Numbered from the stretch's first letter, positions 302-57,156 are shown. The stretch: DNA of 64,000 bases from Deltaproteobacteria bacterium (GCA_016283195.1 JAEEML010000167.1:688-64687); one strand, 5' to 3'. Notes: generated by a model not told the origin, from the letters alone. Numbers and translations are program-made.

Positions 302-317
302 ATTTATTTGCCAGGGG

Positions 318-385
318 CCCTCACCCCGACAAGTACCGAAAATTATTAGCATCTCGCCCCTCTCCATTTTTACAAATAGAGAGGG
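318..385. repeat. Inverted copy of the ~50-bp repeat unit plus hairpin element copy 2
   Basis: ccctcaccccgacaagtaccgaaaattattagcatctcgcccctctccatttttacaaatagagaggg is the reverse complement of the unit that repeats in tandem at 4495-4665. Confidence 0.7.
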
Positions 386-441
386 CTCATCTATGTGAAT
401 TTATATGTGTTTCTAAAGTATCATGAGCTCTGGCGGGGTGG

Positions 442-25128: not shown

Positions 25129-26628
25129 ATGAGAGTCGTATGTGAAGAATGCAATGCCCAGTATCAAGTTGCCGATGAAAAAATTGGCGAGCACGGTGCA
25201 AAAATTACCTGCAAAAAATGCGGGCACACCATAATTGTTAAGCCGACTTCCGGTGAAGCCGGTGATGATCTTTCTTTTACCGATGCCACAGAGGCGGATG
25301 CCGGTGAAGCAGCAAGTGAAGCCGCTCCTGCGGGTGAATGGTATGCTTCTCTGCTTAATAATCAGCAGGTTGGCCCCATTACAATTGAAGAACTTGAAGC
25401 CCACTGGGACACCATGGAACTAAATGATGATTCCTTGTGCTGGAAAGCCGGTATGGGTGATTGGATGCCCTTGGCCGAGATTCCGGAACTGGCTTTTCTG
25501 GTTATTCGTAAACCGCATCCCAAGGCCAGTGCCGAAAGTGCTCCGGCGGCCGCCGCACCGGCAGCTGCCGCGCAGTCTGGTGAGTGGGAGAGTGGCTTTT
25601 CAGCTCCCGCCGGCGGTGACAATGTTGATTGGAAACCTTCTGGCGCTTCTGATTTAGCCTCTTTGGTGAAAGAAGAAGTTGAAGCCTCAAAACGCGCCGA
25701 GGAAGAAGCGAAAAAGGCGGCTGAGGCCGCAGCTACACCGGCGGCTCCTGCCGGTCTTGCCGGTCTCTTTGGTGAGGGCGGCGGTGAAGGTGAAGCAGCT
25801 GCAGCTGCCGGTAACAGTGCCGCAGACCCCTTTGCCGCTCCGGCCAATGACCCCTTTGCTCAAAAGCCGCAATCGGCTCAGGCTTATAATAATTACGGCG
25901 GCTATCCACCGCCCAGCTCCGGCGGCAATAAAGGGCTGATGATTGTCATTATTGTTCTCCTGGTGGCTGTTTTGGGCGGCGTTGGCTTTGTTTATTGGAA
26001 TTCTACCCAAAAACCGGCTACTCCGGCTACTCCGCCGCAGACCGTGGCTCAGGCTCCGGCTCAACCTGCTGCCCAGCCGGCTCAGCCAGCTCCGACTCAG
26101 CCGGCGGCTGCTCAGCCCGTTCCGGCTCCGGCTGATACCCAAGCTGCTGCTCCTGTCGCCGACAAACAGCATGATACTGCCAAAGACAAATCAAGCACTA
26201 AGACAACTACCAAGACAACGACCAAAAAAGATCCCAAGCCGGCAACCAGAGAAAAAGAGAATAAGCCGGCTCCTGCTCCGGTTAAAGAGAATAAGCCGGC
26301 TCCTGCTCCTGCCGCTGCTTCCTGTGATAAACAAAGGCCTGAAGGTGCAGATATTCAAAACGTGGTTAAAGCTAAATTGCCTGTGGCTCTTAAGTCTTGT
26401 TTGCCGGCGGCCAAACAGCGCGGCGAAATCAGCTCTGCCTTCACTCTGGATATTGGCTTTACCGTTGAAAAGAGCGGCAAACTGAGCTCTCCGCAAGTTC
26501 GCCCGGCAGATATAGCCTCCACCGGTTTTGCCGAGTGTTTAAAGAATCAAATGCGCACCTGGCGCTTCCCCTCCTTCTGTGAAGGCAGCGCCGTTCCGGT
26601 TAAATCCATCAAAGTACCGATCAAGTAA
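25129..26628 (+). CDS. Zinc-ribbon (MJ0042-type) / GYF-like domain protein with long Pro/Ala-rich low-complexity linker, one TM helix and conserved C-terminal domain
   Basis: N-terminal VCEECNAQYQV…ITCKKCGHT CxxC…CxxC. DSLCWKAGMGDWMPLAEIPEL is DUF4339/GYF-like. The TM is LMIVIIVLLVAVLGGVGFVYW. Direct repeats EKENKPAPAPVKENKPAPAPA. Confidence 0.5.
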   Translation: MRVVCEECNAQYQVADEKIGEHGAKITCKKCGHTIIVKPTSGEAGDDLSFTDATEADAGEAASEAAPAGEWYASLLNNQQVGPITIEELEAHWDTMELNDDSLCWKAGMGDWMPLAEIPELAFLVIRKPHPKASAESAPAAAAPAAAAQSGEWESGFSAPAGGDNVDWKPSGASDLASLVKEEVEASKRAEEEAKKAAEAAATPAAPAGLAGLFGEGGGEGEAAAAAGNSAADPFAAPANDPFAQKPQSAQAYNNYGGYPPPSSGGNKGLMIVIIVLLVAVLGGVGFVYWNSTQKPATPATPPQTVAQAPAQPAAQPAQPAPTQPAAAQPVPAPADTQAAAPVADKQHDTAKDKSSTKTTTKTTTKKDPKPATREKENKPAPAPVKENKPAPAPAAASCDKQRPEGADIQNVVKAKLPVALKSCLPAAKQRGEISSAFTLDIGFTVEKSGKLSSPQVRPADIASTGFAECLKNQMRTWRFPSFCEGSAVPVKSIKVPIK

Positions 26629-29903: not shown

Positions 29904-30365
29904 CTAAAGATTAAAAAGATTTTGGGCTTGTGCTTCCGGCAAAAGGCGCTCACTCAGTTTATTTAATTCTAAGAGAGTGCTATTTTCCGGCAAATTAATG
30001 GCAATTTGTTCGGGAATAATGGCGGCGCTCAGGTGGCGTGACAGCTCCTCCGCTAAAGCCTCCAAAATTTTTCCAGATAATGGTGCCGGCTTGGTTATGA
30101 TAGCTAACTTGCCGTTTATAAAGGCTATATCAACAGCTGTAGTGCCCCAGTCGGCCTTTAAGAGCAGCCGCCAGTCTGCGCTATCACAAGTGGCCAGCAA
30201 AGCGCTGTATTGCGCTTCATAAGTATTTTGTTGCCAAGCGGCTCTAGCGCTGATGAGCCGGCAATTATCAAGTTTTCTCGCTTTTTGCGCCACCTCCGTG
30301 TGGGCACAGCCGGCAATAAGCGGAGTAGCTAAAAAAACTAATAAAAAAACTAATTTATTAAACAT
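29904..30365 (-). CDS. Lipoprotein, function unknown
   Basis: Lipobox LIAGC after a hydrophobic signal. 153 aa. Confidence 0.45.
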   Translation of the reverse strand: MFNKLVFLLVFLATPLIAGCAHTEVAQKARKLDNCRLISARAAWQQNTYEAQYSALLATCDSADWRLLLKADWGTTAVDIAFINGKLAIITKPAPLSGKILEALAEELSRHLSAAIIPEQIAINLPENSTLLELNKLSERLLPEAQAQNLFNL

Positions 30366-31269
30366 TCATCTCTGCCTGTAGCAAGAGTTTTTCCAAAGTT
30401 AAGCAAGGCGAGCCCGCCAGCTCCCTGAGGCTTTTAAATTGCATCTCGGCTTCTAAGTCAAGCTCCCCGTTAAAACTAGCCTTAATAAGCGTATTTTTAG
30501 GAGAATTTTCCTCAGGCACAAACTCTATAGCCGTGCTTTTGTAGCCATTAATGCGCAGCAAAAGAAGGCGCAGGGCATCGGTAAAAGTAGCGGCACTTTG
30601 GCGCCTTAAGTGCGGTGTATTCATGAATACAGCCAGCGGGCCTGAGGCTTTTTCCAAGGCCTTTTTCTCCCAAAAAGCAGCCAGTTCGGCTTGGCAACAG
30701 GGGGCGGCGGCGATAAAATCCGCTTTATTTTTTATGCCGTAAAAAAGAGCCCAATCGGTGGCTGTATTGCAAGCGTGAAGAGCCAGTAATACATTGATTT
30801 TTTGCGGAATCTCTGCTTCTTCCAGCTTTTGGCATTTAAAGGTTATAAGTTCGGAAAGCTCAAGCTGCGCCGCTCTTCTCTGGCACTGCTTTATCACCGG
30901 TTCATTAAAATCCAGGCCGATAATCTGCGCGTCGTGCTTTAGATAATGGCGGTAATACCAGGCCAAAAGAAGCGATAAATAAGAGCGGCCGCAGCCGCAA
31001 TCAATAATAACAGGCTGGGCATATTTTTGATTGAGAGCCTGTAAATCGGGGAGAATCAGCCGCACCATTTGCGAAATTTGCCAAAATTTACGCATACTTT
31101 CCGGCGTCATCTCTCCATGCGCCTGCATGAGCCCCATAGCGCGCCAGAGCGGGGCATCATCCACGGGGTGGAGTAGCAGGCGGCGCCCTCCCAAAAGGTG
31201 GGCCTGACGTTCCGGCGTCCAAAACTCCGCAGCGCGCTTTTTTATTTCATTAAGCCATTCTGCTTGCAT
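30358..31269 (-). CDS. Class I SAM-dependent methyltransferase
   Basis: Motif I VIIDCGCGRSYLSLLLA and motif II IIGLDFNEP. The internal ATG at 31269 is preferred, because the longer track ORF would overlap the divergent gene at 31355. Confidence 0.55.
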   Translation of the reverse strand: MQAEWLNEIKKRAAEFWTPERQAHLLGGRRLLLHPVDDAPLWRAMGLMQAHGEMTPESMRKFWQISQMVRLILPDLQALNQKYAQPVIIDCGCGRSYLSLLLAWYYRHYLKHDAQIIGLDFNEPVIKQCQRRAAQLELSELITFKCQKLEEAEIPQKINVLLALHACNTATDWALFYGIKNKADFIAAAPCCQAELAAFWEKKALEKASGPLAVFMNTPHLRRQSAATFTDALRLLLLRINGYKSTAIEFVPEENSPKNTLIKASFNGELDLEAEMQFKSLRELAGSPCLTLEKLLLQAEMNV

Positions 31270-31354
31270 CGCTTTAATCTCAAAAAGGGGCTTTATTCCC
31301 CCAAAATTATGGGCTATACTACCCAAATTGTGGGCTTTTCCAAGGAGAAAACGC

Positions 31355-31816
31355 ATGAAAAACAAAATAACTACTCTGCTGGCAGCCATAGCATTAACAA
31401 TTTCTTTGGGTGCCGGTAGCGCTGTTGCCGCCCCCAAAGCCGCTGCTGCTGCCAAGGCCGAAGCCGGGAAAAATGCCAAGGAGTTCAAGGGAAATATTGT
31501 AGGCACATACACGGTTACCGGCAATACCCCTGGGCAAAATGGCCAATATACCGGCAAAGTGGTCATTAAAAAAACCGATGATACTTATCAAGTTAGTTGG
31601 ACGCTTGGCGAAGAGAGCAATTTTGGCACCGGCCTTTTAAATGGCGATACCTTTGCTGTGGCTTACACTAACAGCAAAGGCAGCTTTTTTGGCCTGGTGC
31701 TTTACAAAGTGAGCCCGGATGGCCGCACTATGGAAGGCATGTGGACTATGGCCGGAGCTAATCTCTTTGGCACCGAAAAGCTGGTAAAAGAGCTGCCCGG
31801 AGCGACCGGACTTTAA
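31355..31816 (+). CDS. Secreted hypothetical protein
   Basis: Signal peptide MKNKITTLLAAIALTISLGAGSAVA. SD AGGAG sits 8 nt upstream. 153 aa. The stop overlaps the miaA ATG. Confidence 0.5.
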   Translation: MKNKITTLLAAIALTISLGAGSAVAAPKAAAAAKAEAGKNAKEFKGNIVGTYTVTGNTPGQNGQYTGKVVIKKTDDTYQVSWTLGEESNFGTGLLNGDTFAVAYTNSKGSFFGLVLYKVSPDGRTMEGMWTMAGANLFGTEKLVKELPGATGL

Positions 31817-32739
31817 TGGCTCTCCCCAAAGTTATTGCTATTGTCGGCCCGACATCCATCGGCAAAACGGCAGCTGCTATTGATTTAGCCGAAAAATATA
31901 ACGGCGAGGTGGTTACCTGCGATTCGGTGCAGGTTTATGCCCAAATGGATATCGGCAGTGCCAAGCCCACTATAGAAGAGCGCCGCGGTATTCCCCACCA
32001 CATGATTGACCTGGTGCCGGCCGGCGGCGAGTATAATGCCGCCCAATATGCCGTAGATGCCGCTAAAGTAATAAAAGATATCTTGGCGCGCGGTAAATGG
32101 CCGATTATTGCTGGCGGCACCGGCCTCTTTTTGCGCACTTTATTGCACGGCATTATCGAGGCTCCGGAGGCCGACCAGGCCCTGCGCGCCGAGCTGGAAA
32201 ATGCCGAAAAGGCGGAGCCGGGCTATTTGCGTCGCCGTCTTATGGAGCTGGATCCGCCAAGTGCCGAAACGATAATCGGCAATAATATCCCGCGCTTAAT
32301 TCGCTCTATTGAAATAACGCTCTTAAGCGGCAAGCCGGCGAGTCTATGGCGAGCTGAGCACGCTTTTAAGGAAGAGCCCTTTCCCGGGACGCCGGTGATT
32401 ATGCTCGATGCCGAGAGCACCTGGCTGCATGAGCGGCTGACTAAACGGGAGCAGGGCATGGTAGATAGCGGCCTGCGCGAAGAAATACAAAATCTCTGGC
32501 AGGCCGGGGTTTCTCCAGAGTGGCGGGTGTGGAATGCGCTCACCTATCGCCAGGCTTGCGATTATCTCAAAGGCAAAATCAAAAAAGAGGAGCTTTTACC
32601 GGCTCTCGTCAATGCCAACTGGGCCTTCGTGCGCCGCCAGCGCACCTGGTTTCGCAAAGAGAAAAATGTCATCCACATCGACGTTACCGGCCGGCCGGAG
32701 CAGGCAGCGCGGCTCATTGCGGAAGCGGTATCGCTGTAA
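31816..32739 (+). CDS. miaA: tRNA dimethylallyltransferase
   Basis: P-loop GPTSIGKT and …TCDSVQVYAQMDIGSAKPT. Confidence 0.9.
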   Translation: MALPKVIAIVGPTSIGKTAAAIDLAEKYNGEVVTCDSVQVYAQMDIGSAKPTIEERRGIPHHMIDLVPAGGEYNAAQYAVDAAKVIKDILARGKWPIIAGGTGLFLRTLLHGIIEAPEADQALRAELENAEKAEPGYLRRRLMELDPPSAETIIGNNIPRLIRSIEITLLSGKPASLWRAEHAFKEEPFPGTPVIMLDAESTWLHERLTKREQGMVDSGLREEIQNLWQAGVSPEWRVWNALTYRQACDYLKGKIKKEELLPALVNANWAFVRRQRTWFRKEKNVIHIDVTGRPEQAARLIAEAVSL

Positions 32740-32771: not shown

Positions 32772-34526
32772 TCAGAAATTGATCTTCACGCCCACATTAA
32801 AGGAGCGTGAACTGGGAGTATCCAGCCCGGAAGCACCGAAGTTGAGGGAGACCTTGTCTTTGTAAGAAATCCCGGCTGAGGCGTTTACCAGCGGATTGCC
32901 GGAGGTGAAGCCGCCGCTTATGGAGCCGGTTAATTTCCAATCATCTTTAATAGTTACTTTGCCCTGAACATTCCAAAGGAAATCCTCGCCATAGCGAGTA
33001 TCAAAAATAGTTATCGGCGCGTAAAGGTTAGCCGAGAGGGCAAAATTATCTCGATGATAGGTGGCGCCTATTTCGGCAAATTGGTTGATTGCCGGCGGTG
33101 TCCACTGCTGGAAACGGCCCATCAGCAAATTAGCTGCACTGTGAGCCACATCCACGCTCATGGTATAATCGGCAGATAAAGTTAAATCTTTGCGGGCATC
33201 CCACTCAAAATGGTTGTGCGAGGTGACATCTATATCGGTGTCCATGATAGTCATACCGAGAGACTCAATCTTGCCGCCCTGGTGGAAATAAATGGGAATA
33301 GCTACTGTGCCGTCCATAGTGGAGCTAAAGCGCAGAGTATTGTCTTTCCAGGAGTTGGCATAAATATCGGTATTCCAATTGGCGCCCAGAGCCAGCATGT
33401 GCATCGGTGAGGCAGTGCTGCCTGAATCGCCGGCATCACGCACGCCCATTTGCGGCATATAGCCATAAGCCAGGCTGAGCTGGAAGTGGTCATTAAAGGA
33501 TTCGCGCGCGGCAATCCAGAGAGCGCCGTTTTGGCCGCCCATATTGCCGCCTATGCCGGAATTTCCCAAGCTTGGCAAATTATAGCGGGCATCAATTTGC
33601 AAGCCGATATTGTTGAAGCTGACCGAGCCGGCCGCTTTTTCGTTATCAATATCAAAGCCGAAGGACACCGGCTTGCCGTCTTTGTTGTCGATATTTATAG
33701 AATATTTGCTGCCATCACGCGTGCCGCTGATAAAGCCTTTGAGTTCTTCGCCATGGTGAGTGCGCACCCGCTTTTCCACATAAGCGCTCTTATCGGCTTC
33801 GGCGTTGTTCCAAATCCAGAAATTATTGGCAGAGGGGAGGGCTTTAGCTAGCGCTTCTTCAAAAGAATCGGCCCCAAGTTCGTGAATTTTACCATATTCG
33901 GCAATATTCCATTTGCCGGTATCTTTGTCTTTGTAAAAGCTGACAACGTGGAAACAATCGGGCTCGGCATAAGCCACGGCTTTGGCTTCATAGCCGAGTT
34001 CATTCAGCATATAGGTCTTGGTGATGGCATCTTCGCGGCAAACGCCTTTCTTGCTTTGAAAGGCCTCCAGCACCGAGTAAGCAAAAACATCAAGGCAGTG
34101 GCTGTAATCATAAGTGAAGCTATCAGCCCAGATAGAGGCTACATCAGAGGCATCAGAGAGATTGTTATGAATCCAATTGCGAAAATCTTCCGGAGTAGCA
34201 TTATCCGGCAGGTCGCTTTGGATGTGTTTGCCTCTGGTATTTACAGAATGCCAGGTTTCATCGAATTTGGCGCCTTGGCTGATAATACCTTTAGTATTAT
34301 GATAATTAGGCTCAACTAGGCTGTTTTTGGCAGTCATTACCACCGATTGCTTTTTGGCCGGAGTGGCTGATTTTTCAATAGTATCAACAGGTTCTCCTGT
34401 GGCTTGCGACTCTTTTGTGCCTTCCGTTTTATCGGCTGCCGGAGCATCGTTAACTGCTACCGGCTCGGTATAAGTATTAGTATAAAGCGGGTTTACGGTA
34501 TTATTGGCAGAACCTATTGCTGACAT
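32772..34526 (-). CDS. Large protein: transglutaminase-like Cys-protease-type domain plus C-terminal beta-barrel-like domain (paralogue A)
   Basis: Core KKGVCREDAITKTYMLNELGYEAKAVAY…CFHVVSFYKDKDTGKWNIAEYG gives a Cys-His-acid triad pattern. The C-terminal 300 aa is Gly/aromatic-rich with alternating polarity and ends …VKINF. Confidence 0.5.
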   Translation of the reverse strand: MSAIGSANNTVNPLYTNTYTEPVAVNDAPAADKTEGTKESQATGEPVDTIEKSATPAKKQSVVMTAKNSLVEPNYHNTKGIISQGAKFDETWHSVNTRGKHIQSDLPDNATPEDFRNWIHNNLSDASDVASIWADSFTYDYSHCLDVFAYSVLEAFQSKKGVCREDAITKTYMLNELGYEAKAVAYAEPDCFHVVSFYKDKDTGKWNIAEYGKIHELGADSFEEALAKALPSANNFWIWNNAEADKSAYVEKRVRTHHGEELKGFISGTRDGSKYSINIDNKDGKPVSFGFDIDNEKAAGSVSFNNIGLQIDARYNLPSLGNSGIGGNMGGQNGALWIAARESFNDHFQLSLAYGYMPQMGVRDAGDSGSTASPMHMLALGANWNTDIYANSWKDNTLRFSSTMDGTVAIPIYFHQGGKIESLGMTIMDTDIDVTSHNHFEWDARKDLTLSADYTMSVDVAHSAANLLMGRFQQWTPPAINQFAEIGATYHRDNFALSANLYAPITIFDTRYGEDFLWNVQGKVTIKDDWKLTGSISGGFTSGNPLVNASAGISYKDKVSLNFGASGLDTPSSRSFNVGVKINF

Positions 34527-34608
34527 CTAAACCTCCTCCGTAGCAGTAAAAACCTGCTAAGTGCATTTATTATCGGTGGAAAATTTTTTTTGTCTACAAA
34601 AAAAGAGC

Positions 34609-36342
34609 TTAAAAAGTGAAGAAAGCGGTCACAGTGGCGCTGGCAAATTCATTGGTATGAGCCGAAGCTTTGAAGTTTAAGCCATAAGCGCCTTTTTTGC
34701 TGATGCCAAGCTCGGCATTGAAGATGGCACTTTCAGAATCAAAAGCCCCACCAGCGGAGCCTTTCAATTGCCAACCGTTTTTAAGAGCGGCTTCGGCTTT
34801 TACATCCCAGCGGAAACTTCTCTCATAGCGGGTATCGCTAATACTTATGGGCATATAGGCATTGGCAGAGAGCTTTAGGTCTTTGGTGTTGTACTTAAGA
34901 CCAAATTCGGCATATTGGTTGATTATCGGCGAAAAATCACCGCCACCAGATAAAATAATATTAGCTACAGTGTGTGCGGCATCAAAACTGGCAGTGTAAC
35001 CGGCTGAGAGGGAAAGGCCGTTGCCGGCATCCCAGTCCAACTTGTTTTTCCAGGTCACATCAGCGTCGCTGTCCATGAGCGTTCTCATAAGTGCCTTGAA
35101 TTCAAAGGAATTATCAAAATAAAACGGTGTTGACAGAGTGCCGTCAATAGATGAATTGAATTTCAAATCCTCGGCCGGAGAAGTATAAGAAACCACATCT
35201 TCATGCCATTTGGCGCCGATAGCCAGCATGTGCTCATTATTTTCCGGAGCGTAGCCATAAGCCAGGCTGAGCTGCGCATTATCGCCGATTGATTTGCGCG
35301 CCGCTGCCCAAATAGCGCCGTTTTGGTCGCCCATTTTGCCGCCAAAGCCCATTATTGAGGGCAAATTATAGCGCGTATCCAAGGTGAGGCCCAGTTTTTG
35401 GGAAGAGGCGGAAACAGCCAGCTTTTCTTCATCGGCATCGGCTTTTAGAGTAATAACTTCATCGCCTTTGAGTTTAAAAGTTTGCTTAACCAGCGAATAA
35501 TCTTTTTGTGTGCCGCTGATAAAGCCTTTCATTTTTTCGCCGCCGGCGGTGCGCACTCTTCTTTCAATGTAAACATTACCGGAAGAGTCTTGGTTCATAA
35601 CCCAGCAATTTTTTGAAGATTCAGGCAAAGTTTGTTTTAAAGCGGCATTAAAAGTGGAGGCTTTTAATTCTTTTTGCTCACCGCCTTCGTTTACATACCA
35701 AGTGGTTTTGGTCTCCTTGGTCTCGGTGCCATCTTCTTTGGTGGTGACGACAACTTCTTCTTTTTTGCTGAAAGTGGCTACATGAATTTTGCCGTCGGCA
35801 TCGGTATAAGCTACCGGTTTATTTTCGTAAACATGGTCATTAACCATGCTCATGTTGGTGGCTTTTACTTCCGGCAGACCTTTTTCCAAATGCTCTTTTA
35901 GTTTTTTAATGGCGAAATCATTAAGGGCATCTTCGGCGGCATCGGCGGCTTTATCCAGCCCGTCGTTTACGGCTTTATCAATATTCTCGTTAATGATGGT
36001 GCCCTTGGGACGCAAACTCTTGATGGTTTCCTTGAGAGTGGCCGGCTTTTGGTATTTTGGCAGAGGCAGATTACCGATTGGCTTTTTGGGGGCCGCCGGC
36101 CCGCGCAGCAAGAGGCTCTGGCCATAGGTAGCACCGGAGTCAAGAGTATCAACATCAGCAGGTTTAGCACCGCTTTCGGTGGCAGCTTCGGGGGATATTT
36201 GCTGCTCGCCGGGCTGAATAGCCGTATTTTCCGCCGGATCGGGGTAATTGGCACTTGTAAGGGGATTCAACATATTACCTGTGCTACCTATTGCTGACAT
36301 CAGCCACCTCATCTCGGTGATAAACACCACCGCTCTCGCCAA
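34609..36342 (-). CDS. Paralogue B of the above, lacking the catalytic Cys
   Basis: Shares the N-terminal MSAIGS…N.LNPL motif, RVRT..GE.(L/M)KGFISGT, RYNLPS…QNGA(L/I)WAAAR…QLSLAYGY and a C-terminal aromatic end (TAFFTF). Confidence 0.5.
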   Translation of the reverse strand: MARAVVFITEMRWLMSAIGSTGNMLNPLTSANYPDPAENTAIQPGEQQISPEAATESGAKPADVDTLDSGATYGQSLLLRGPAAPKKPIGNLPLPKYQKPATLKETIKSLRPKGTIINENIDKAVNDGLDKAADAAEDALNDFAIKKLKEHLEKGLPEVKATNMSMVNDHVYENKPVAYTDADGKIHVATFSKKEEVVVTTKEDGTETKETKTTWYVNEGGEQKELKASTFNAALKQTLPESSKNCWVMNQDSSGNVYIERRVRTAGGEKMKGFISGTQKDYSLVKQTFKLKGDEVITLKADADEEKLAVSASSQKLGLTLDTRYNLPSIMGFGGKMGDQNGAIWAAARKSIGDNAQLSLAYGYAPENNEHMLAIGAKWHEDVVSYTSPAEDLKFNSSIDGTLSTPFYFDNSFEFKALMRTLMDSDADVTWKNKLDWDAGNGLSLSAGYTASFDAAHTVANIILSGGGDFSPIINQYAEFGLKYNTKDLKLSANAYMPISISDTRYERSFRWDVKAEAALKNGWQLKGSAGGAFDSESAIFNAELGISKKGAYGLNFKASAHTNEFASATVTAFFTF

Positions 36343-36438
36343 TTATCGGAATAAGAAGAATTTTGTCCATTAAAAATAGCCGATTTTTTGCAATTAACTA
36401 ATTTTTAGCTAAATAATCTGCCGGATTTGGGAGGAAAT

Positions 36439-40669: not shown

Positions 40670-41347
40670 ATGAGTTTAGAGGGGCAAATTAGTGATCTTG
40701 AAAGCATGATGAGCGAGGCTATGCTGGATGATGGCGGCAGCTCTCTGCCTGATAATCCCTTGGATTTGGCGGTGAGCGAAATAGCCGATTGGCCATCGGT
40801 AGCCGAAGTTTTGGCTTTTTATTCGCAGGGCTTGCCTCTTTCCATAAAAAATGAGCTCATAGCTCTTTGCCAGGAGTTGACTAAAAGTGCCGGTCCTAAT
40901 CCCAATCTGGCGGTGCAGGTAGTGCGTTTCCCCGTTTTGGGCGGCTACACCACCAAAGAGGCTGTTTCGGTGATAAAAGCCGCTCCGAGGCGGCGCAGCG
41001 GGCTCACCAGAGATATTTCCGGCGTTAGTCTGCAAGCCAGAGCGCAAAAGCCCAAAGCTTCTGCCCCAAAAGTTGCGGGCGGGGCGATGCCTGTACCCAG
41101 CACTAAAAAACTGGCTCAGCTGGAAAAACAAGCCGGCGCACTCTATGTTACCTGGAAAAAAGAAGAAGAGGGCAGTCCACGCTTTTTGGCACTTAAACCG
41201 CAAGTTTTACATGCCTGGAAACAATTGGAAGCGGGGCTCCAAAGCCGCCTGGAATACCTCAAAAAAAACAGTGGGGAAAATAGCCGTGCGATTTTGGGCT
41301 ATCAGAAGGCACTCCATAAAGTTTCGGCCATTCTTAATAGTTTTTAA
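40670..41347 (+). CDS. Hypothetical protein
   Basis: The ATG at 40670 follows SD GGAGG. 225 aa, no recognisable motif. Confidence 0.4.
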   Translation: MSLEGQISDLESMMSEAMLDDGGSSLPDNPLDLAVSEIADWPSVAEVLAFYSQGLPLSIKNELIALCQELTKSAGPNPNLAVQVVRFPVLGGYTTKEAVSVIKAAPRRRSGLTRDISGVSLQARAQKPKASAPKVAGGAMPVPSTKKLAQLEKQAGALYVTWKKEEEGSPRFLALKPQVLHAWKQLEAGLQSRLEYLKKNSGENSRAILGYQKALHKVSAILNSF

Positions 41348-42825
41348 CCAAGTTCGGCTTCCAAAAGCGGAGAAAGCGCCGAGAAGAGCTTGGCGGCTTT
41401 GTCCTTAAATTTGGTGCTTTTGATATAATATTCTTGAAAATCATGGGAAAAAATTCTTTCCGGATGCGCCTTGCAACCGGAGAGGCTCATAATCATCAGC
41501 GGCGAGGCGTAAATTTTTTGCTGCACAGGATCTTCCTGGATAAAGCTGTAAAAATGCTTTATAGCTGCCTGGTAATCGCCGTTTTCGGCCAGACACTGGG
41601 CTATAGCCATGCTGGGAGTATAAATGGCTCCGCTGATCATGGTGCGCATAAAGGGCACAAAGACACGCACTACCGGCACTTTTAAAAGCGGATGGGTTAT
41701 ATCTATATAACTTACTTCATAGCCGGCCTCCGCCAGATTTTTAACCAGGTAAAGCAAATCGTCGCAGAAATCACCAGATGCCTTATTTTCTAATGAATCA
41801 AAAGAGATAGTTTCTTTGGCTGCCTCCAGCATGTGGCGGTTGTAGGTGGCGAGAAAGCCGCTGTGGTTTTGCGGCAGGGAGGCGGCGATGCGTTCAAAAG
41901 CCGTGCCGCACTCTGCAAACTCCTTTTTCTTTATGGAAAGGCTCTCAAAATATTCCGAAAGCGCGCGAATGAGCGCCATTTTGGGGTTTAAGTGGCAGCC
42001 CTGGCCAACTCCCTTGGAAATAATAGAATCGCTGTTATTATTAATGACACCGGCAACACAAAAAGTTGGTATGCCAAGTTTCGCGCCTATTTCTAAAATA
42101 GTCAGGCTAATGCCGGCTTCTTCCGCGGCGCGCAGAATATTTAAAATATCCGTATCGTTAATAGAGGCAGGGTCTATCCGGCGCGGCGGCCGTTCATCCA
42201 TAAAGAGGCGGCAAACATTTTCCCGCTCTATTACTTCGCAAATGCCCTGCACCAGAGCCTCCGGCAATTGGTTGCCGGCGGCCAGGCCGTTGGAGGTATA
42301 AGTTATATTGTGCCAAGTAATAGGATATGCTTCAAGAGTGCTTGTGGTTAAATTTTGAGCACTTATCCATTTTTGCGGCATGGCGAGAATTTCCGGCAGC
42401 AGGTGCTCATAAGCCGCTTTATCCTTTAAATTGGCCAAAAAATAATCGGCACTTAGTAGAGGCCCTTTTTCCTCTGATAGCTCGTTATAGCTGGCTATGC
42501 GGTAGCCCGGAGCATCCCGGTAGGCAAAATTGAGCCAGCTTAAGCGCTCGGCGAGTTCCATAAGTCCGCTGGCCTCAGCTTGCGCTTCTTCCAAGCCTTT
42601 GCCGCTGGCCGCAAAGCCGTCAAAAGAAGTTTTAAATGAATAGCTGCCGTTTATAACCGGCTGGCGTTTTTCCGATATAAGTTGTTTGCCGGCCGAAAGA
42701 AGAGGCAGAGTTTCCTTGATGCGGGCTACTGTTTCCGCCGGCGGGCGGCATTTATCCAAAGAGCCGTTAAATGTTTTGGGGCAACTTTTAAATTGCTTTA
42801 AAAAGGAGAAATTAGTATTCATCAT
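41344..42825 (-). CDS. YcaO-like domain protein with C-terminal helical/TPR-like region
   Basis: N-terminal …RPPAETVARIKETL…SGKGLEEAQAEASGLMELAERLS, then SNGLAAGNQLPEALVQGICEVIERENV, then …YIDITHPLLKVPVVRVFVPFM. These are the three YcaO signature blocks in canonical order. Confidence 0.55.
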   Translation of the reverse strand: MMNTNFSFLKQFKSCPKTFNGSLDKCRPPAETVARIKETLPLLSAGKQLISEKRQPVINGSYSFKTSFDGFAASGKGLEEAQAEASGLMELAERLSWLNFAYRDAPGYRIASYNELSEEKGPLLSADYFLANLKDKAAYEHLLPEILAMPQKWISAQNLTTSTLEAYPITWHNITYTSNGLAAGNQLPEALVQGICEVIERENVCRLFMDERPPRRIDPASINDTDILNILRAAEEAGISLTILEIGAKLGIPTFCVAGVINNNSDSIISKGVGQGCHLNPKMALIRALSEYFESLSIKKKEFAECGTAFERIAASLPQNHSGFLATYNRHMLEAAKETISFDSLENKASGDFCDDLLYLVKNLAEAGYEVSYIDITHPLLKVPVVRVFVPFMRTMISGAIYTPSMAIAQCLAENGDYQAAIKHFYSFIQEDPVQQKIYASPLMIMSLSGCKAHPERIFSHDFQEYYIKSTKFKDKAAKLFSALSPLLEAELG

Positions 42826-42906
42826 GCGGCCTCTATCAGTTACGACCAAGGCCGTAAGTATAGCAGTTAGAATTGGCAGAGGCTACTGTTTTTGAGGAGA
42901 ATTTGG

Positions 42907-45900
42907 ATGGTTAAGTCCTTTGTTGGGCTGGATATAGGTGCGGAAAATATTAAAATAGCTATTCTTGATGAGGATGATGATAATCGGCTTAATATTTCTT
43001 CATGTGAGCTGATTCCGCATTTTAAAAACCCCCAGACAGTGCTTAAAAAATGGTTTTTAGAGCATAAAAATACCACTTTTGCCGGAGCGGCTGTTACCGG
43101 GCGGCTGGCTCGTATTTGCAATACTCAAAATGTGCCGGTTTCTGTGGCTCTTGCTGCCGGTGTGCGCCATATTTATCCGCAAAAAGAAGAAGTTACGGTT
43201 ATCAGTATCGGTAGCCGCGGTTTTGGTGTTTTGGAAATACATAAAGACCGGGAAAATTGGCAGGAAAATAGCCGCTGTTCGCAGGGAACGGGCAATTTTT
43301 TGCGCCAACTTACGGAGCGTTTTTCTCTGAGTGTAGAAGAAGCGAGTAGCCTTGTGGCCGATGTAAAAGAGGCGGCCAAGCTTTCCGGCCGCTGCCCGGT
43401 TATTCTAAAAACCGATATGACCCATTTGGCCAATAAAGGGGAGAGCAAAGAGCGCATTTTGGCCGGTCTTTTTGATGCCGTGTGTGAAAATGTCCTGGCG
43501 CTCGTAAAGGTGCGCCTGGCGCCCAAAGAGGTGCTTTTGGCCGGTGGGGTGAGCAAAGCGCCGCGTATCCAAAAGACGCTCGCGGCCATGTTGGCCGGGC
43601 GGGGAATGACACTTTTGCCGGTAAGTGAAGAATATCAACTATTTTATGAAGCTCTCGGAGCCGCTTTATGTGCCCAAAAGCATGGCTATGAAGCGCCGCC
43701 GGATGTGAGCTCTTTATTCAAACCGGCGGAGAATAGCGGATTTTGGTCTTTGGCGCCGCTAAGCCAATTTACAGCTAAAGTAAAGCGCCTGGATTACCCC
43801 ATGCCCGGCCTGTTAGAGCAGGAAAAACTGGTGCTGGGCTTTGATATCGGTTCAACCGGCGCCAAACTTCTGGCCTATGATATAGCACAGGAAAAGCCGC
43901 TTTGGAGCTCATATCTACCAACCAACGGTGATCCATTCGGGGCCTCTATAGCCCTTTTAAAAAACTTTTTGCAAGCCGGCGGCCGGAGCGAAAAAGTGCT
44001 GGGCTTTGGCGTCACCGGCTCCGGTCGGGAGATAGTCGGCTCGCTGCTTAAAATCGCTTACGGCGAAGAATATGTATATATTATCAATGAGATAGCCGCG
44101 CATGCCACTGGCGCCTCCTATTATGATGACGCTGTGGATACCATCTTTGAAATAGGTGGTCAGGATGCCAAATATATTCGCCTTGATCATGGGCAGATTT
44201 TTGATGCCGCCATGAATGAGGCTTGCAGCGCCGGCACCGGCTCGTTTTTGGAAGAGCAGGGTGTGCGCCTGGCCGGTATAGCCAGTATTAGCGATATGAA
44301 TGAAGCTGCTCTTAAAGCTGCTTCTTCTGTCTCTTTGGGGCAGCACTGCTCGGTATTTATGGCCGAAAATATAGATGCTGCCATCGCGGACGGCTTTGAT
44401 ACCGGGGCGATTATCAGCGGCCTTTACGATTCGGTAATTCAAAATTATTTAAACAGAGTGAAGGGCAACCGCTCAATTGGCAAGCGCATATTTTGCCAGG
44501 GAATGCCCTTTGCCGCTGCAGCTTTGGCCGCCGCTGTGGCCAGGCGCACGGAATGTGAAGTGGTGGTGCCGCCGCATCCGGGAGTTATCGGCTGCCTGGG
44601 CATTGCCATTCTGGCCGGCCGCGCTTTTGCCGGATCGCAGCATAATCCGCTTGATTTGCAAAAGATTCTTTCGGCCAAGCTGGTGCTGAAAGATAATTTT
44701 ATCTGTAATTCCACCAAAGGGTGCGGTGAGCCGGGCAACCATTGCCGTATAGACAGATTAAAAATTCTCCTGGAAAATAAAGAGCAGCGCTTTATCTGGG
44801 GCGGCAGTTGCTCGCTCTATGACCGCGGCACCAGAGAGCGCAAGTTGCCCGATTTGGCACCCGATCCCTTTAGAGAGCGCTCTAGGCTCCTAAATGATGA
44901 CAGTGAATTTTTAAGGCGCGGCCGGCCGCTGGTGGCTATGAGCAGCGAATTTATTTTGAGCAACCTCTACCCATTTTTTAAAACTTTTATCTATGAGCTG
45001 GGTTTTGATTTGCTCCTTAGTCCGCCCGGCGATACGGCAGCCTTAAAACGCGGCATCGAGGAGGCCAGTGTTCCCTATTGTGCGCCGCTGCAACTTTATA
45101 GCGGCGTGATGTCTGCTCTTTTGGAAAAGCAGCCGGATTACCTTTTTCTGCCGATGCTACGCGATATTCCGCGCGCTGAGAGCGAGCCTTATTCCACCGC
45201 TTGTCCGCTTTCCCAGGCCAGTGCTGCGCTTTTGAAATTTACTTTGCCGCCAAGCGAAAAAACAGTTCTATTGCGGCCGGTTATCGATATGGGTACCGGC
45301 AATCTCGAATCGCCAATGTTTATAAATAGTTGCGAGCGTTTGGCCGCCAGCCTCGGCGCCGATAAAAAAGCGGCTTTAGCGGCCTATAAAGCGGCGCTTG
45401 TTAAACAAAAAAGCTTTTACGCCTCCTGTAAGGCAATAGGGCAAAAAGCTCTCGAATATGCGGCTAAAGAGCACATAATTCCGGTGGTTGTTATTGGCCG
45501 TTCTTATACTATTTATAACAATATACTTAACAGCAATGTGCCCAATATATTGCGCGCTCAAGGGGCTCTGGCCATACCGGTTGATTGCTATCCGGTAAAT
45601 GATGATACGCCTGTTTTTGCTGATATTTTCTGGGGTTATAGCCAGCAGGCGCTTAGAGCAGCCCACCAAATACGCCGCCACAAGGGAGTTTATAGCGTTT
45701 TTTGCTCCAATTATTCCTGCGGGCCGGATAGCTTTACTTTGCAATTTTTTACTTACATTATGGAGAACAAGCCCTGCGTTATTATAGAAACCGACGGCCA
45801 TAGCGGCGATGCCGGCACTAAAACCAGGCTTGAGGCCTTTTTAAGCTGTGTGGAGGCCGAAGAAGAGGCTGAGAGAATAGCCGCCACAGCGCGAAAAACT

Positions 45901-47196
45901 AACGATTTTACAGAGATATTGGCAAATAATATTTCTCTGCCCGCTACCATTACCCAGAAGAAAACACTGCTTATCCCCCGCATGGGGCATAGCGCCGAAG
46001 TGGCTGCCGCCGGTCTCCGCGGGGAAGGGCTTACAGCTGAGTGTCTGCCGGTGCCGACTCGCGAAACTTTGGAGCTGGGGCGTAAATACACCTCCGGCAA
46101 AGAATGCCTGCCGATGATTCTGACTCTGGGCGGCATATTGGAGCGCGCCGCCAAGGGGCCTTCTGCGGAATTTCTGGCCTTTTTAATGCCGCTGGCTCAT
46201 GGCCCCTGCCGCCTGGGCTGTTACAATATGCTGGATAAAATTGTTTTTGAAAAACTTAACTTAAAGCAAAAAATCAGCATTGTAAGTCCGCCTGATTATA
46301 ACTATTTTGAGGGACTTAGTACCGGAGCGGCCATTAAAATTCTGGCCGGTTTTGTCACCGGCGATTTGCTCTGGGATATGCTTTACCACACGCGGCCGGT
46401 TGAAAAGGAAGCCGGAGCGGCGCAAAAAATATTCTCCGCGGCTTTTGCTAAATTGATCACCATGATGGAGAGCGAAAAAGCGCCGGATATAGTTCACGCG
46501 CTGGCAACTGTGCAATTTGGCAATATTTTCGGCCTTACCGATCTTTTGGCGGAAACGGCAGACAAGCTAGCGGAAATAAAGGATTTTAGTAAAAAATTGC
46601 CCACAGTGGCCGTGACCGGTGAGATATATGTGCGCTGCGATCCGTTTGCCAATAACCATGTGATTGAAGAGCTGGAAAAGCGCGGCATCAGAGTAAAATT
46701 TTCGGCTTTCAGCGAGTGGATGGAATACATAGATTGGGCCAAAAGGCGTCGCTACGGCGAGGGCCACCTGCCAACTCCTTATAATCCCTTTACCGCCCGC
46801 ATAAGCAGCGCGGTACAAAAAACAATATTCAGCCGCTTATATGCCGTTCCGGCTAAAAAATTGCACTGGGAAGAGCGCACCGCTGTTACCGATTCTCTTG
46901 CGGCTGCCGCTCCCTATATGCCGAATGAGCTTTACGGCGAAACCTGCCTCACCATTGGCGGGCCAACATTTGATTATCGCAAGGGAGAAGTCCTGGGCGT
47001 GGTCAGTGTAGGGCCGCTGGAATGTATGCCTTCCAAAATAGCCGAAGCGGCTTTAAAAGAAGTGGAAAAAGCCGAGCGCTTAATAGCTATCTCGCTGCAA
47101 TTAAACGGTGATCCCGTTGACCCAGCAATTTTGGATGCCTTTGCATATCGGGTAAAAGAGCGTTTTTCCTGCTTAGGAGAAAATAGGGAAGGTTAA
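42907..47196 (+). CDS. CoA-substrate-specific enzyme activase fusion: two BadF/BadG/BcrA/BcrD (ASKHA) ATPase domains plus DUF2229-type C-terminal domain
   Basis: Two FVGLDIG/LGFDIGSTGAK ATPase N-termini, then a C-terminal …CSNYSCGPDSFTLQFF…IIETDGHSGDAGT… block. ATG at 42907 with GAGGAG SD. 1430 aa. Confidence 0.6.
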   Translation: MVKSFVGLDIGAENIKIAILDEDDDNRLNISSCELIPHFKNPQTVLKKWFLEHKNTTFAGAAVTGRLARICNTQNVPVSVALAAGVRHIYPQKEEVTVISIGSRGFGVLEIHKDRENWQENSRCSQGTGNFLRQLTERFSLSVEEASSLVADVKEAAKLSGRCPVILKTDMTHLANKGESKERILAGLFDAVCENVLALVKVRLAPKEVLLAGGVSKAPRIQKTLAAMLAGRGMTLLPVSEEYQLFYEALGAALCAQKHGYEAPPDVSSLFKPAENSGFWSLAPLSQFTAKVKRLDYPMPGLLEQEKLVLGFDIGSTGAKLLAYDIAQEKPLWSSYLPTNGDPFGASIALLKNFLQAGGRSEKVLGFGVTGSGREIVGSLLKIAYGEEYVYIINEIAAHATGASYYDDAVDTIFEIGGQDAKYIRLDHGQIFDAAMNEACSAGTGSFLEEQGVRLAGIASISDMNEAALKAASSVSLGQHCSVFMAENIDAAIADGFDTGAIISGLYDSVIQNYLNRVKGNRSIGKRIFCQGMPFAAAALAAAVARRTECEVVVPPHPGVIGCLGIAILAGRAFAGSQHNPLDLQKILSAKLVLKDNFICNSTKGCGEPGNHCRIDRLKILLENKEQRFIWGGSCSLYDRGTRERKLPDLAPDPFRERSRLLNDDSEFLRRGRPLVAMSSEFILSNLYPFFKTFIYELGFDLLLSPPGDTAALKRGIEEASVPYCAPLQLYSGVMSALLEKQPDYLFLPMLRDIPRAESEPYSTACPLSQASAALLKFTLPPSEKTVLLRPVIDMGTGNLESPMFINSCERLAASLGADKKAALAAYKAALVKQKSFYASCKAIGQKALEYAAKEHIIPVVVIGRSYTIYNNILNSNVPNILRAQGALAIPVDCYPVNDDTPVFADIFWGYSQQALRAAHQIRRHKGVYSVFCSNYSCGPDSFTLQFFTYIMENKPCVIIETDGHSGDAGTKTRLEAFLSCVEAEEEAERIAATARKTNDFTEILANNISLPATITQKKTLLIPRMGHSAEVAAAGLRGEGLTAECLPVPTRETLELGRKYTSGKECLPMILTLGGILERAAKGPSAEFLAFLMPLAHGPCRLGCYNMLDKIVFEKLNLKQKISIVSPPDYNYFEGLSTGAAIKILAGFVTGDLLWDMLYHTRPVEKEAGAAQKIFSAAFAKLITMMESEKAPDIVHALATVQFGNIFGLTDLLAETADKLAEIKDFSKKLPTVAVTGEIYVRCDPFANNHVIEELEKRGIRVKFSAFSEWMEYIDWAKRRRYGEGHLPTPYNPFTARISSAVQKTIFSRLYAVPAKKLHWEERTAVTDSLAAAAPYMPNELYGETCLTIGGPTFDYRKGEVLGVVSVGPLECMPSKIAEAALKEVEKAERLIAISLQLNGDPVDPAILDAFAYRVKERFSCLGENREG

Positions 47197-56041: not shown

Positions 56042-56139
56042 ATTTAACGTGTCTTACTGAGTTGGTGCAGCATTTAAGAGCAAGAGCCAACAGAGTCCAT
56101 ATATTACTTTTTATGGCGCTTTTGTCCACAGAAAATATA

Positions 56140-57156
56140 CTAAATCTGTAGCGTCATGGCTAAATTATATTGGCCGGCGGCACGAGCCAGATTGTGCTCA
56201 TGGGCTGAGGCGAATTTGCTGCTATCCCAAGCGAAATTCTGCGGAATAAAAGCTTCTTTGGCAAAACGGGCGGCGAGTTCCAGGGAAATGGTGCGCACAG
56301 CCTGCAGCAGAAAGGGCTTCAGCGGAATCAAAGCATCTTTGTTACTTTGCTCATAGCCGGTTAAAAAAGCTTCCCAGTATTCAAATTTAAAAGCGGCATT
56401 TTCGGCATCTTCGGCCGGGGCGGCAAAAGAGCGCAGGGCATCGGCCAGTTCCGTGATTAGCGCGCGCCGGGCAAAAGTGTCCAAATCCACCATCGTGAGG
56501 GCCTTGGTTTCATGGTAGAGAAAGTTGGCTATTTTGGGATCTCCGTGGAGAGTGCCTATAGAAAATTTTTTAAAATCAAGGAGATTATCTTCCTCTTTTA
56601 AAATGGCGGCGGCCAGTTTTTTTAGATCTGCCAGGCCGCTAAAATCAGGTGTAGCCCCAAGGACCTTTTTAAGCTCACCAAAATGCCAGGGACTATCATG
56701 CACATGCTCGCGTATATGCTGAAAATTATAATTAAAATCAGATAAAACCCGGTGGTACTCACCAAGTAATCTCCCAGCGCTTTCGGCATGTAGGGCAGTG
56801 GGAGTCGCTAAAAATGTTTGGCCGGGAATATAAGTAAGTGCCCGCCAAATAAAGCCCTCATTATCGCTGACAAAAAGCTGATTATCAGCTGTTTTTATGA
56901 GCTTTGGTGTTGTTAAACCATGGGCTTTTAAGTGAGCGGTAACAGCCTCTATATCGTTAAGAACAGCAGCTTTAAAAATTGGGCTTAGGCGCTGGAGAAT
57001 AAACGGCCTGGTGCCCGGCGGAGTCAGCAGAAATGTTTGGTTGATGAGGCCCCCGGCCAGTTTTTGGCAGGTCGTCTCACGGCACCGGTAGGCCGCGCAA
57101 ATTTCCGGCGCAATAGGCGGGGTGGCGGAAAGCCCAGATAAAGCAGCTTTATTCAT
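56140..57156 (-). CDS. Phosphotransferase-family (APH/choline-kinase-like) protein
   Basis: Brenner-type HGDPKIANFL and DLD motifs. The start ATG at 57156 overlaps the upstream gene's stop (ATGAATAA). Confidence 0.55.
   Translation of the reverse strand: MNKAALSGLSATPPIAPEICAAYRCRETTCQKLAGGLINQTFLLTPPGTRPFILQRLSPIFKAAVLNDIEAVTAHLKAHGLTTPKLIKTADNQLFVSDNEGFIWRALTYIPGQTFLATPTALHAESAGRLLGEYHRVLSDFNYNFQHIREHVHDSPWHFGELKKVLGATPDFSGLADLKKLAAAILKEEDNLLDFKKFSIGTLHGDPKIANFLYHETKALTMVDLDTFARRALITELADALRSFAAPAEDAENAAFKFEYWEAFLTGYEQSNKDALIPLKPFLLQAVRTISLELAARFAKEAFIPQNFAWDSSKFASAHEHNLARAAGQYNLAMTLQI

Follow-up and report, generated by a model that had tools for sequence, protein, structure and literature searches.

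The minus strand of the 64-kb window (the whole stretch of DNA that was analysed, 64,000 nucleotides from an assembly labelled Deltaproteobacteria) carries two open reading frames in tandem, at the coordinates of the original prediction, which we refer to as copy A and copy B. The features of the pair are as follows.

32772..34526, minus strand: copy A gene, stop codon included, 584 aa
32775..33704, minus strand: predicted beta-barrel of copy A, approximately residues 275-584, with about 16 long antiparallel strands and a beta-signal-like end, FNVGVKINF
33717..34214, minus strand: transglutaminase (TGase)/papain-like domain of copy A, approximately residues 105-270, from Pfam, profile alignment with 3isr_A and Foldseek
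34038-34040, 33948-33950 and 33897-33899, minus strand: codons of the putative catalytic triad of copy A (Cys163, His193 and Glu210, respectively), from alignment
34467..34526, minus strand: residues 1-20 of copy A, the conserved uncharged peptide MSAIGSANNTVNPLYTNTYT, from a 7-sequence alignment
34569..34596, minus strand: promoter-like element of copy A, TAGACA-N16-GATAAT, matching the sigma-70 consensus at 10 of 12 positions
34609..36300, minus strand: copy B gene, stop codon included, 563 aa counted from the ATG at 36300
34612..35499, minus strand: beta-barrel region of copy B, approximately residues 268-563, with its extent set by alignment to copy A and a terminal FFTF
36241..36300, minus strand: residues 1-20 of copy B, the N-terminal peptide MSAIGSTGNMLNPLTSANYP, from the same 7-sequence alignment
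36342..36369, minus strand: promoter-like element of copy B, TGGACA-N16-GATAAT, which includes CCGATAAT

An in-frame stop lies directly 5' of the copy A ATG, with GGAGGAGG 6 nt 5' of that ATG, and GAGGTGG precedes the copy B ATG at 36300, the codon of the methionine of MSAIGS; the Shine-Dalgarno sites of both copies are strong. Lengths of 584 and 577 aa had been given for the two proteins. The first stands, but the second is the length that an ORF caller obtains from a TTG at 36342, and the probable protein, starting at the MSAIGS ATG, is 563 aa long.

That these neighbours on one strand are paralogues, as predicted, is confirmed by BLASTP, which aligns them over their full length at 36% identity (E 4e-101), continuously through the barrel, and when every six-frame ORF was searched with a profile they proved to be the only members of their family in the window. 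The order of the genes, B then A, is kept in another assembly, where the orthologues of both copies lie (L001). In the C-terminal 157 aa, copy A is 76% and copy B 53% identical to its respective orthologue, so that copy B has evolved the faster of the two; the sequences also place the duplication before the split from the L001 organism. The family itself is tiny, with 43 matches in 1.8 billion representative proteins, none of them named, and its members come from MAGs labelled Deltaproteobacteria, Bdellovibrionales and Sericytochromatia. A word-indexed protein search returned only the query itself and two orthologues, and scans of genomes and metagenomes with the close alignment found no further members.

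Copy A was proposed to have a Cys-His-acid core and this is indeed present, in the canonical order and spacing, as C163, H193 and E210 of the motifs G161-V-C163-REDA, F-H193-VVSFY and W206-NIAE210-YG. Copy B, which was thought to be a pseudo-enzyme, does not have it: the segment aligned with the Cys reads EKG--LPEV and the sole Cys of the protein is at residue 232, though the His (IH173VATF) and the Glu (WYVNE205GG) are kept. Across the family the His is nearly invariant, the Glu is common and G-V-C-R is found in most of the members that keep the domain. Two HMM comparisons had been suggested as checks. That with Transglut_core (PF01841) gives matches at the level of the family, where 9 of 26 members score with E <= 0.01 (best E 7.5e-8), and falls short for copy A itself (18.5 bits, E 0.0026, cut-off 23); that with barrel families is sub-threshold throughout. 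No PF01841 match to copy B was found in the Pfam search, and DUF553 is matched by 5 of the 26 members. A sequence profile aligns 3isr_A to copy A at GVCRD, and the predicted model of copy A, in which this domain adopts a papain/TGase-like fold with a pLDDT of 78-97, matches both 3isr_A (E 7.8e-4) and 7pjo (E 1.2e-3) with a Foldseek probability of 1.00 each. These structures are, respectively, a protein of Cytophaga hutchinsonii and CPR-C4, both of them TGase-like cysteine proteases. The family-level Pfam matches and the Foldseek result thus agree with the transglutaminase-like fold that was originally predicted. Copy A resembles the TGase-like and papain-fold cysteine proteases in the G-V-C-R around the nucleophile and in the placing of the His, about 30 residues after the Cys, and of the acid, 17 residues after the His. 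It differs from them in the predicted fusion of the domain to a membrane barrel, in having, as it appears, Glu in place of Asp as the third residue of the triad and in falling under the Pfam cut-off, and copy B differs in having no nucleophile.

Structure prediction for copy A, another of the suggested checks, gave both a TGase-like domain and a barrel. The AlphaFold2 model, built from a 26-sequence alignment (pLDDT 78, pTM 0.77), consists of a disordered N-terminus (residues 1-90), the TGase-like domain and the beta-barrel, in that order. A first model, with 4 sequences in its alignment, had been poor (pLDDT 52), but Foldseek, which matched the model of copy A to outer-membrane barrels as well as to TGase-like cysteine proteases, returned identical barrel matches for the two. 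The predicted fold is a closed antiparallel transmembrane barrel, its closure, its strand number (16 or 17) and the orientation of the domains being as read from the list of secondary-structure elements alone. In the 17 predicted strands of at least 5 residues, the mean hydropathy is +0.5 to +3.9 on one face and -0.2 to -3.8 on the other; lipid-facing and polar residues alternate in every barrel strand, a periodicity that already shows in the sequence. The C-terminal strand of copy A is hydrophobic at positions -1, -3, -5, -7 and -9, and both proteins end, as had been noted of outer-membrane barrels, in Phe (...FNVGVKINF in copy A and ...TVTAFFTF in copy B). In the Pfam and NCBIfam searches no barrel family reached its threshold for either copy; sub-threshold matches were seen for copy B, to PF00593 (19 bits, cut-off 27) and TIGR01783 (18.4, cut-off 223.5). 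A TonB-dependent receptor, which would have a plug domain, a TonB box and a 22-strand barrel, was considered and rejected, since these barrel matches of copy B are all sub-threshold and there is no match to a plug.

In its predicted long antiparallel amphipathic strands, its alternating short turns and long loops and the Phe at the end of the C-terminal strand, copy A resembles outer-membrane barrels such as the 16-stranded porins, OmpG, LptD and the TonB-dependent receptors. Both copies are unlike them in lacking a signal peptide and in reaching no Pfam or NCBIfam barrel threshold, and copy A in addition has, after about 90 aa of disorder at its N-terminal side, an enzyme domain that is soluble and about 170 aa long. 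The strands of the model are joined by short turns and long loops in alternation, and on this pattern both ends of the barrel, and with them the enzyme domain, would be periplasmic; the model therefore suggests that the enzyme domain of copy A lies on the periplasmic side and not at the surface. In several distant relatives the last strand is followed by basic helical extensions, which are unusual for BAM substrates. An enzyme-like 'passenger' and a barrel in one polypeptide are also reminiscent of type V secretion, and two permuted relatives (P0013 and P0016, with the barrel first and the TGase domain last) recall the relationship between classical and inverse autotransporters, for example intimin. 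Autotransporters, as far as is known, always have a Sec signal, a 12-strand barrel and a pore-filling helix, whereas the copies have no Sec signal and copy A has about 16 predicted strands; neither copy matches the autotransporter family (PF03797), and nothing in the model indicates that the TGase-like domain crosses the membrane as an autotransporter passenger does.

The absence of a classical signal peptide, a central claim of the original prediction, is borne out. Sequence and hydropathy reveal no Sec, Tat or lipoprotein signal in either copy, the highest hydropathy of any 12-residue stretch within the first 60 aa being 0.18 for copy A and 0.41 for copy B, against 2.3-2.8 by the same measure for four signal-bearing envelope proteins of the window. 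There is no hydrophobic core such as a cleavable Sec signal peptide has, and a stop stands before the copy A ATG. We regard the absence as real, given that stop, the strong Shine-Dalgarno sites, a start common to 7 genes and the normal signals of the neighbours.

What the proteins have in place of a signal peptide is the common MSAIGS start, which was correctly identified in both copies (MSAIGSANNTVNPLYTNTYTEP in copy A and MSAIGSTGNMLNPLTSANYPDP in copy B) and which defines a group of 7 sequences, the MSAI group. All begin M-S/T-A/G-I, with M1 and I4 invariant and S or T at position 2; conservation ends after 5-6 residues, apart from a few Asn or hydrophobic positions. The first charged residue is at position 18-25 in the group and at 21 in copy A, where the median for the window is 3.5, and 11 of the first 20 residues of copy A are S, T, N or G, where the median is 4, so that in composition this N-terminus stands apart from the others of the window. 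It had been asked whether the motif might simply reflect paralogy. The M-S-A-I start is found again in the orthologues and, at no more than 20-25% identity, in three short-form relatives, and the residues just past it diverge, so the motif reaches beyond recent paralogy. Moreover, the codon for Ser2 is TCA or TCG in the long forms and AGT in the short forms, which implies constraint at the level of the protein, and the short forms keep the peptide without the TGase core, which implies that the peptide is independent of the enzyme domain. In the AlphaFold2 model of copy A the segment has no structure (pLDDT 23). Other subfamilies have different conserved N-termini, one example being a helical start that bears an EF-hand. 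We also considered a double-glycine leader with export by a peptidase-ABC transporter, and rejected it by reasoning that 'MSAIGG' is far too short and that the leader consensus is absent.

Both genes also have what looks to be a conserved promoter of their own. In each, a T(G/A)GACA -35 (consensus TTGACA) stands at sigma-70 spacing, with a 16-nt spacer to the -10, and matches at 10 of 12 positions. The -10 region contains CCGATAA, 50 nt before the ATG in copy A, 49 nt before it in copy B and, as part of the same element, 49 nt upstream in the L001 orthologue of copy A. The motif CCGATAAT lies upstream of 5 of the 6 MSAI-group genes with upstream DNA (a count that leaves out L002, which has 18 nt only), the sixth having GCGATAAA, and is absent upstream of the distant relatives. 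The copy A element can alternatively be read as ACAAAA-N11-CCGATAAT. The sigma-28 -10 consensus, GCCGATAA, is matched at 8 of 8 positions in L001, L007 and L008 and at 7 of 8 in copy A, copy B and L006.

P0007, a relative of the same architecture, has a classical signal peptide and adjoins a gene for an Omp85-domain protein, and six relatives in which the TGase-like domain is C-terminal (P0018, P0029, P0036, P0039, P0042 and P0043) have classical signal peptides; these signals and the Omp85 neighbour would favour an envelope destination for the family. Among the genes of the window is one for a GltJ-like gliding protein that has a myxobacterial tail domain, a type of protein typical of Myxococcota and Bdellovibrionota, lineages that are rich in predators; others encode a chemoreceptor, a long GyrB with an insert domain and TatC. 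No secretion-system, export-apparatus, flagellar or nearby chaperone genes were found in the 64 kb, and scanning it for Rfam families and tRNA genes gave no matches. V-type ATPase genes beside the L006 relative raised the idea of a spirochaete origin, with periplasmic flagellar export, and this was rejected for the window on account of the GltJ-like protein, the long GyrB and TatC.

The explanation that we favour, though at somewhat short of even confidence, is an outer-membrane-anchored thiol enzyme with a dead paralogue, exported by a putative non-Sec route. Copy A would be an envelope protein whose N-terminal thiol enzyme, of TGase/papain fold, is anchored by an outer-membrane-type barrel of about 16 strands at the C-terminal end of the protein, with the enzyme domain and both barrel ends at the periplasmic face; the enzyme could act as a protease, amidase or transamidase. 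Copy B would be an older duplicate in which the barrel and the scaffold of the domain survive and the nucleophile is gone, and is most likely a non-catalytic partner or regulator. The uncharged Ser/Thr/Asn/Gly-rich stretch of about 20 residues, with the roughly 70 disordered residues that follow, would serve as an uncleaved export signal for a Sec-independent system. We know of no route in bacteria by which an outer-membrane barrel is inserted without first being exported by Sec, and the central step of this proposal is therefore without precedent.

The N-terminal peptide might instead be regulatory or interacting (for example a site for autoinhibition or processing of the thiol enzyme, a degron or a peptide for docking), with export, if any, by other means. 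Its short span of conservation, its lack of structure in the model and the different N-termini of other subfamilies are all compatible with such a role, which we nevertheless consider unlikely: the short forms keep the peptide without the TGase core, and a barrel with a hydrophobic exterior must get to some membrane. Alternatively, the proteins could be effectors that leave in one step, by a type III-like, flagellar or type I exit, the barrel entering a foreign membrane (the prey outer membrane or a host organelle) and taking the enzyme with it. Type III signals are uncleaved, disordered and Ser/Thr/Asn-rich, with about 15-20 charge-free residues, and the charge-free, S/T/N/G-rich N-termini of the copies, with an aliphatic Ile4 and disorder thereafter, resemble those of type III and flagellar substrates, although such composition rules are not specific. 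The labels of the relatives' MAGs and the predator-rich lineages to which the GltJ-like protein points would suit effectors too. Yet a monomeric barrel of about 16 strands, hydrophobic on its outside, would be hard to hold soluble in transit, and we know of no membrane barrel among type III substrates; the pair has no chaperone, secretion or export-apparatus gene near it in the window, and the relatives with Sec signals indicate the envelope of the producer itself. We judge delivery of this kind to be quite unlikely.

A related idea makes the MSAI group late genes of a sigma-28 flagellar regulon, with the N-terminus as a flagellar type III signal. The CCGATAA of the group equals the -10 box of sigma-28 (FliA) class 3 genes, a chemoreceptor gene lies in the window and, of the 26 CCGATAA sites there, 3 are intergenic, two of these being the promoters of copies A and B. 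In Bdellovibrio bacteriovorus, FliA promoters of the form TTAAG-N16-CCGATA make up two thirds of the mapped attack-phase-specific promoters, including those of surface proteins and proteases (PMC3627812). The -35, however, is of the sigma-70 kind: 15-16 nt upstream of the -10, where a sigma-28 promoter would carry TAAA (in Bdellovibrio, TTAAG), the genes have TAGA, TGGA, TGGA, TCAA and GCAA. The chemoreceptor promoter has the same TGGACA -35 but a plain TAATAT -10, the window holds no flagellar genes, and the flagellar route normally ends outside the cell rather than in the periplasm. We find this account improbable, and the FliA reading of the promoter (GACAAAA-N11-CCGATAAT) was rejected as the explanation, since its -35 fits neither the E. 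coli nor the Bdellovibrio consensus (PMC3627812) and the scan is sigma-70-like. It would be an equally long shot that a Bdellovibrionota- or Myxococcota-like lineage has Sec-independent outer-membrane barrels whose uncleaved and uncharged MSAIGS peptide is recognised by an exporter related to type III systems and possibly flagellar, their genes forming a co-regulated set with sigma-28-type -10 elements. That the barrel is over-predicted, or the ORFs are not genuine genes, is already disfavoured and strikes us as extremely improbable; the alignment is shallow and the first model was poor, but the pair is kept in another assembly, there are 43 homologues, both models give the same barrel matches and the strand periodicity can be read in the sequence.

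Should the proposed anchored enzyme and its paralogue prove to be cytoplasmic, or to take an ordinary route that was overlooked, the finding shrinks to a rare uncharacterised family. A literature search on signal-less barrels found nothing relevant, and to our knowledge all bacterial outer-membrane barrels cross the inner membrane via Sec with a cleavable signal peptide. The combination of a predicted outer-membrane-type barrel, a consistently absent signal and a different, conserved N-terminus therefore makes this family a concrete case on which to test whether barrels can reach the outer membrane independently of Sec or be delivered to a foreign membrane. The predicted fusion of a thiol enzyme to a barrel would be a new architecture, with a natural pair of enzyme and dead enzyme, and the analysis defines a small co-regulated set of genes in poorly known bacteria that are probably predatory or gliding.

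The two genes under study, copies A and B, lie in tandem on the minus strand of the window in the following arrangement.

31816-32739: miaA, convergent to the copy A/copy B pair and flanking it on one side
34526-32772, minus strand: copy A, 584 aa
36300 (ATG), minus strand: copy B, the upstream gene of the pair, 563 aa
36427 onward: maf-yggS-divIVA group, divergent from the pair and flanking it on the other side

The two proteins align from end to end with 36% identity (E 4e-101), as expected of the adjacent, same-strand paralogues that had been predicted, and a search of the six-frame translation with the family profile revealed no third member in the window. The predicted length of 584 aa stands for copy A, where GGAGGAGG lies upstream and the ATG is directly preceded by an in-frame stop; the 577 aa given for copy B was counted from an upstream TTG, and the ATG at 36300, with GAGGTGG 4-10 nt 5' of it, is our preferred start on the best reading. 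A methyltransferase ORF, listed at 30358-31566 (minus strand), overlaps the opposite-strand LIC10280-like gene (31328-31816, plus strand) by about 240 nt, and its first 54 residues are hydrophobic and uncharged; its real start probably lies further downstream.

A first AlphaFold2 model of copy A, built from four sequences, was weak (pLDDT 52); a second, with a 26-sequence family alignment, reached pLDDT 78 and pTM 0.77. In the model, residues 1-90 are disordered (pLDDT 19-50), an alpha/beta domain spans about residues 105-270 and about 16 long antiparallel strands, mostly at pLDDT 84-96, occupy about residues 275-584. Foldseek matched the model to outer-membrane barrels and, with a probability of 1.00 each, to the transglutaminase (TGase)-like cysteine proteases 3isr_A (E 7.8e-4) and CPR-C4 7pjo (E 1.2e-3), and the model thus supports the original prediction of a TGase-like fold joined to a barrel for copy A. 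All barrel strands are amphipathic, hydrophobic on one face and polar on the other, and the last, F-N-V-G-V-K-I-N-F, carries hydrophobic residues at -1, -3, -5, -7 and -9. Short strand connections, of 2-4 residues, alternate with long ones of 8-20 residues, some of them helical, and the last is long, a pattern that is usual for barrels with both ends toward the periplasm; judged by this predicted strand list, the TGase-like domain would sit on the periplasmic face.

The Pfam model Transglut_core (PF01841) scores copy A alone at 18.5 bits, below the cut-off of 23; in the family, nine of 26 members match it (best E 7.5e-8), and five of the 26 match DUF553. The family profile aligns 3isr at the G-V-C-R-D motif, and the putative triad of copy A is C163, H193 and E210. 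Copy B, thought to have lost the Cys and kept the His, has a two-residue gap at the expected Cys position, its sole Cys being residue 232; His173 and Glu205 are retained and a 15-residue insertion follows the His strand. On the sequence, the missing Cys indicates that copy B is a catalytically dead paralogue.

Neither copy has a classical signal peptide, in agreement with the earlier reading. The most hydrophobic 12-residue stretch within the first 60 residues scores 0.18 in copy A and 0.41 in copy B, against 2.3-2.8 on the same measure for four signal-bearing envelope proteins of the window (an LpoB-like lipoprotein, two further proteins with a lipoprotein-type signal and the LIC10280-like protein). 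Both copies are free of charged residues before position 21, where the first one falls (window median 3.5), and S, T, N or G account for 10-11 of their 20 N-terminal residues (window median 4). A start of the form M-[ST]-[AG]-I-[GSN]-[SGA] is found in seven genes, namely the long forms copy A, copy B and the homologues P0002 and P0003, and the short forms, of about 450 aa, P0009, P0017 and an ORF of the relatives' locus L006. The short forms are without the TGase core and only 20-25% identical to copy A, which takes the motif beyond simple paralogy. Conservation falls to background past about residue 9, except that Asn recurs at 8/9 and 17 and that position 14 is hydrophobic, and an uncharged run of 17-24 residues is present in all seven. 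Since long forms encode Ser2 by TCA or TCG and short forms by AGT, the constraint is on the peptide and not on the RNA.

In the L001 locus of a relative (GCA_024712465.1), an orthologue of copy A (73% identity) follows a fragment that encodes the C-terminal end of a copy B orthologue. The fragment shares 53% identity with copy B and 44% with copy A, and over the same stretch the identity between copy A and its orthologue is 76%, which indicates that the duplication is older than the split between the two organisms and that copy B is the faster-evolving of the two. The genes downstream differ, cysNC in one locus and miaA in the other, which makes the pair a self-contained unit. Tandem duplication recurs in the family, as two short-form members lie in tandem in L007 (170-2949 and 3114-4691); a lipoprotein with many Cys-rich EGF-like repeats follows them.

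When 1.84 billion representative proteins were searched exhaustively with the profile, 43 homologues were returned at E <= 0.001 (11 at E <= 1e-10), and in Pfam and NCBIfam searches no model spans the whole protein; the family is very rare and unnamed, and its architecture is a new variant that combines folds already known. Among full-length relatives, of 570-730 aa, most share a disordered/EF-hand-bearing N-terminus, a G-V-C-R-D-Q-H core and a beta-rich C-terminus, and among those of this architecture only P0007 has a signal peptide; in P0013 and P0016 the domain order is reversed. Six relatives with a C-terminal TGase-like domain carry classical signal peptides, their clear sharing in BLASTP being limited to the TGase part. 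In the region L010 6386-11728, P0007 is directly downstream of a 1102-aa protein of Tricorn/PD40 beta-propellers and an Omp85 barrel. From the Sec-bearing relatives we argue that the family functions in the envelope. An OmpA-domain protein is also found near P0007.

The genome matches are labelled as Deltaproteobacteria, Bdellovibrionales and Sericytochromatia MAGs. The strongest pointer to the organism is a GltJ-like gliding-motility protein (25129-26628, plus strand; NF033761, E 4e-62) with an MJ0042 zinc ribbon, GYF_2 and an AgmX/PglI 'myxo' tail, which together with a chemoreceptor gene (54425-56029, minus strand) makes it probably Bdellovibrionota- or Myxococcota-like. At 41344-47196 a YcaO-family gene is divergent from a 1434-aa BadF/BcrAD-type activase with DUF2229, a region that suggests an anaerobic lifestyle. 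The sole low-GC part of the window (1-4000; 38-39% versus about 48% elsewhere) holds a 1224-aa type IIG restriction-modification enzyme (442-4116, minus strand; Eco57I methylase, N6_Mtase, TaqI_C, DUF7149 and DUF7814) and is therefore probably acquired DNA. Two proteins, of 1603 aa (57149-61960, minus strand) and 827 aa (49547-52030, plus strand), match no Pfam or NCBIfam model significantly; the second of them has a lipoprotein-type signal.

T(G/A)GACA-N14-CCGATAAT lies upstream of copies A and B and of the orthologue in L001, and in each of these CCGATAA stands 49-50 nt ahead of the start codon. In the short-form genes its counterpart is GCCGATAAT, at 74 and 78 nt upstream, or GGCGATAAA; the element is absent upstream of distant high-GC relatives. 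That the MSAI group, whose N-termini resemble M-S-A-I of copies A and B, has in common both the peptide and the promoter element is a solid result. CCGATAA occurs 26 times in the window against 9.1 expected, a count reached by none of 100 shuffles; as 23 sites are inside coding regions, on either strand, the excess probably reflects codon or dipeptide usage. Two of the three intergenic sites are the copy A and copy B promoters. The third (9889, plus strand) precedes by about 140 nt a Cys-rich ORF of 67 aa that carries no annotation (10032-10235, plus strand), within the 400-bp gap between mnmA and birA.

The most economical reading, held tentatively, is that copy A would be an outer-membrane-anchored thiol enzyme, probably facing the periplasm, that copy B would be its non-catalytic paralogue, and that the conserved N-terminus may be read by a Sec-independent export route. 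Our confidence falls somewhat short of even because, to our knowledge, no barrel protein is known to be exported in this way, and the available DNA shows no export apparatus. Nothing in these results speaks against the earlier suggestions that the N-terminus may be a secretion signal and that copy B may be a decoy. The same conserved, uncharged peptide could have a role other than export, which we think unlikely, and rather less likely still is an effector inserted into foreign membranes, given a predicted barrel in a family with Sec-bearing envelope relatives. An artefact is scarcely credible.

That the genes belong to a sigma-28-type set whose products leave by flagellar or type III export is improbable: the -10 part of the shared element is the sigma-28 consensus, but the -35 part fits sigma-70 (10/12 match) and not sigma-28. 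In Bdellovibrio, most attack-phase genes are under FliA promoters, TTAAG-N16-CCGATA (PMC3627812). The chemoreceptor promoter (56070-56130, minus strand), TGGACA-N16-TAATAT, is like the barrel-gene promoters in -35 hexamer and spacing but is without the CC-GATAAT form of the -10. Returning to the favoured export of the pair through its N-terminus, a demonstrated Sec-independent route for a barrel, if true, would raise the importance of the finding from moderate to high.
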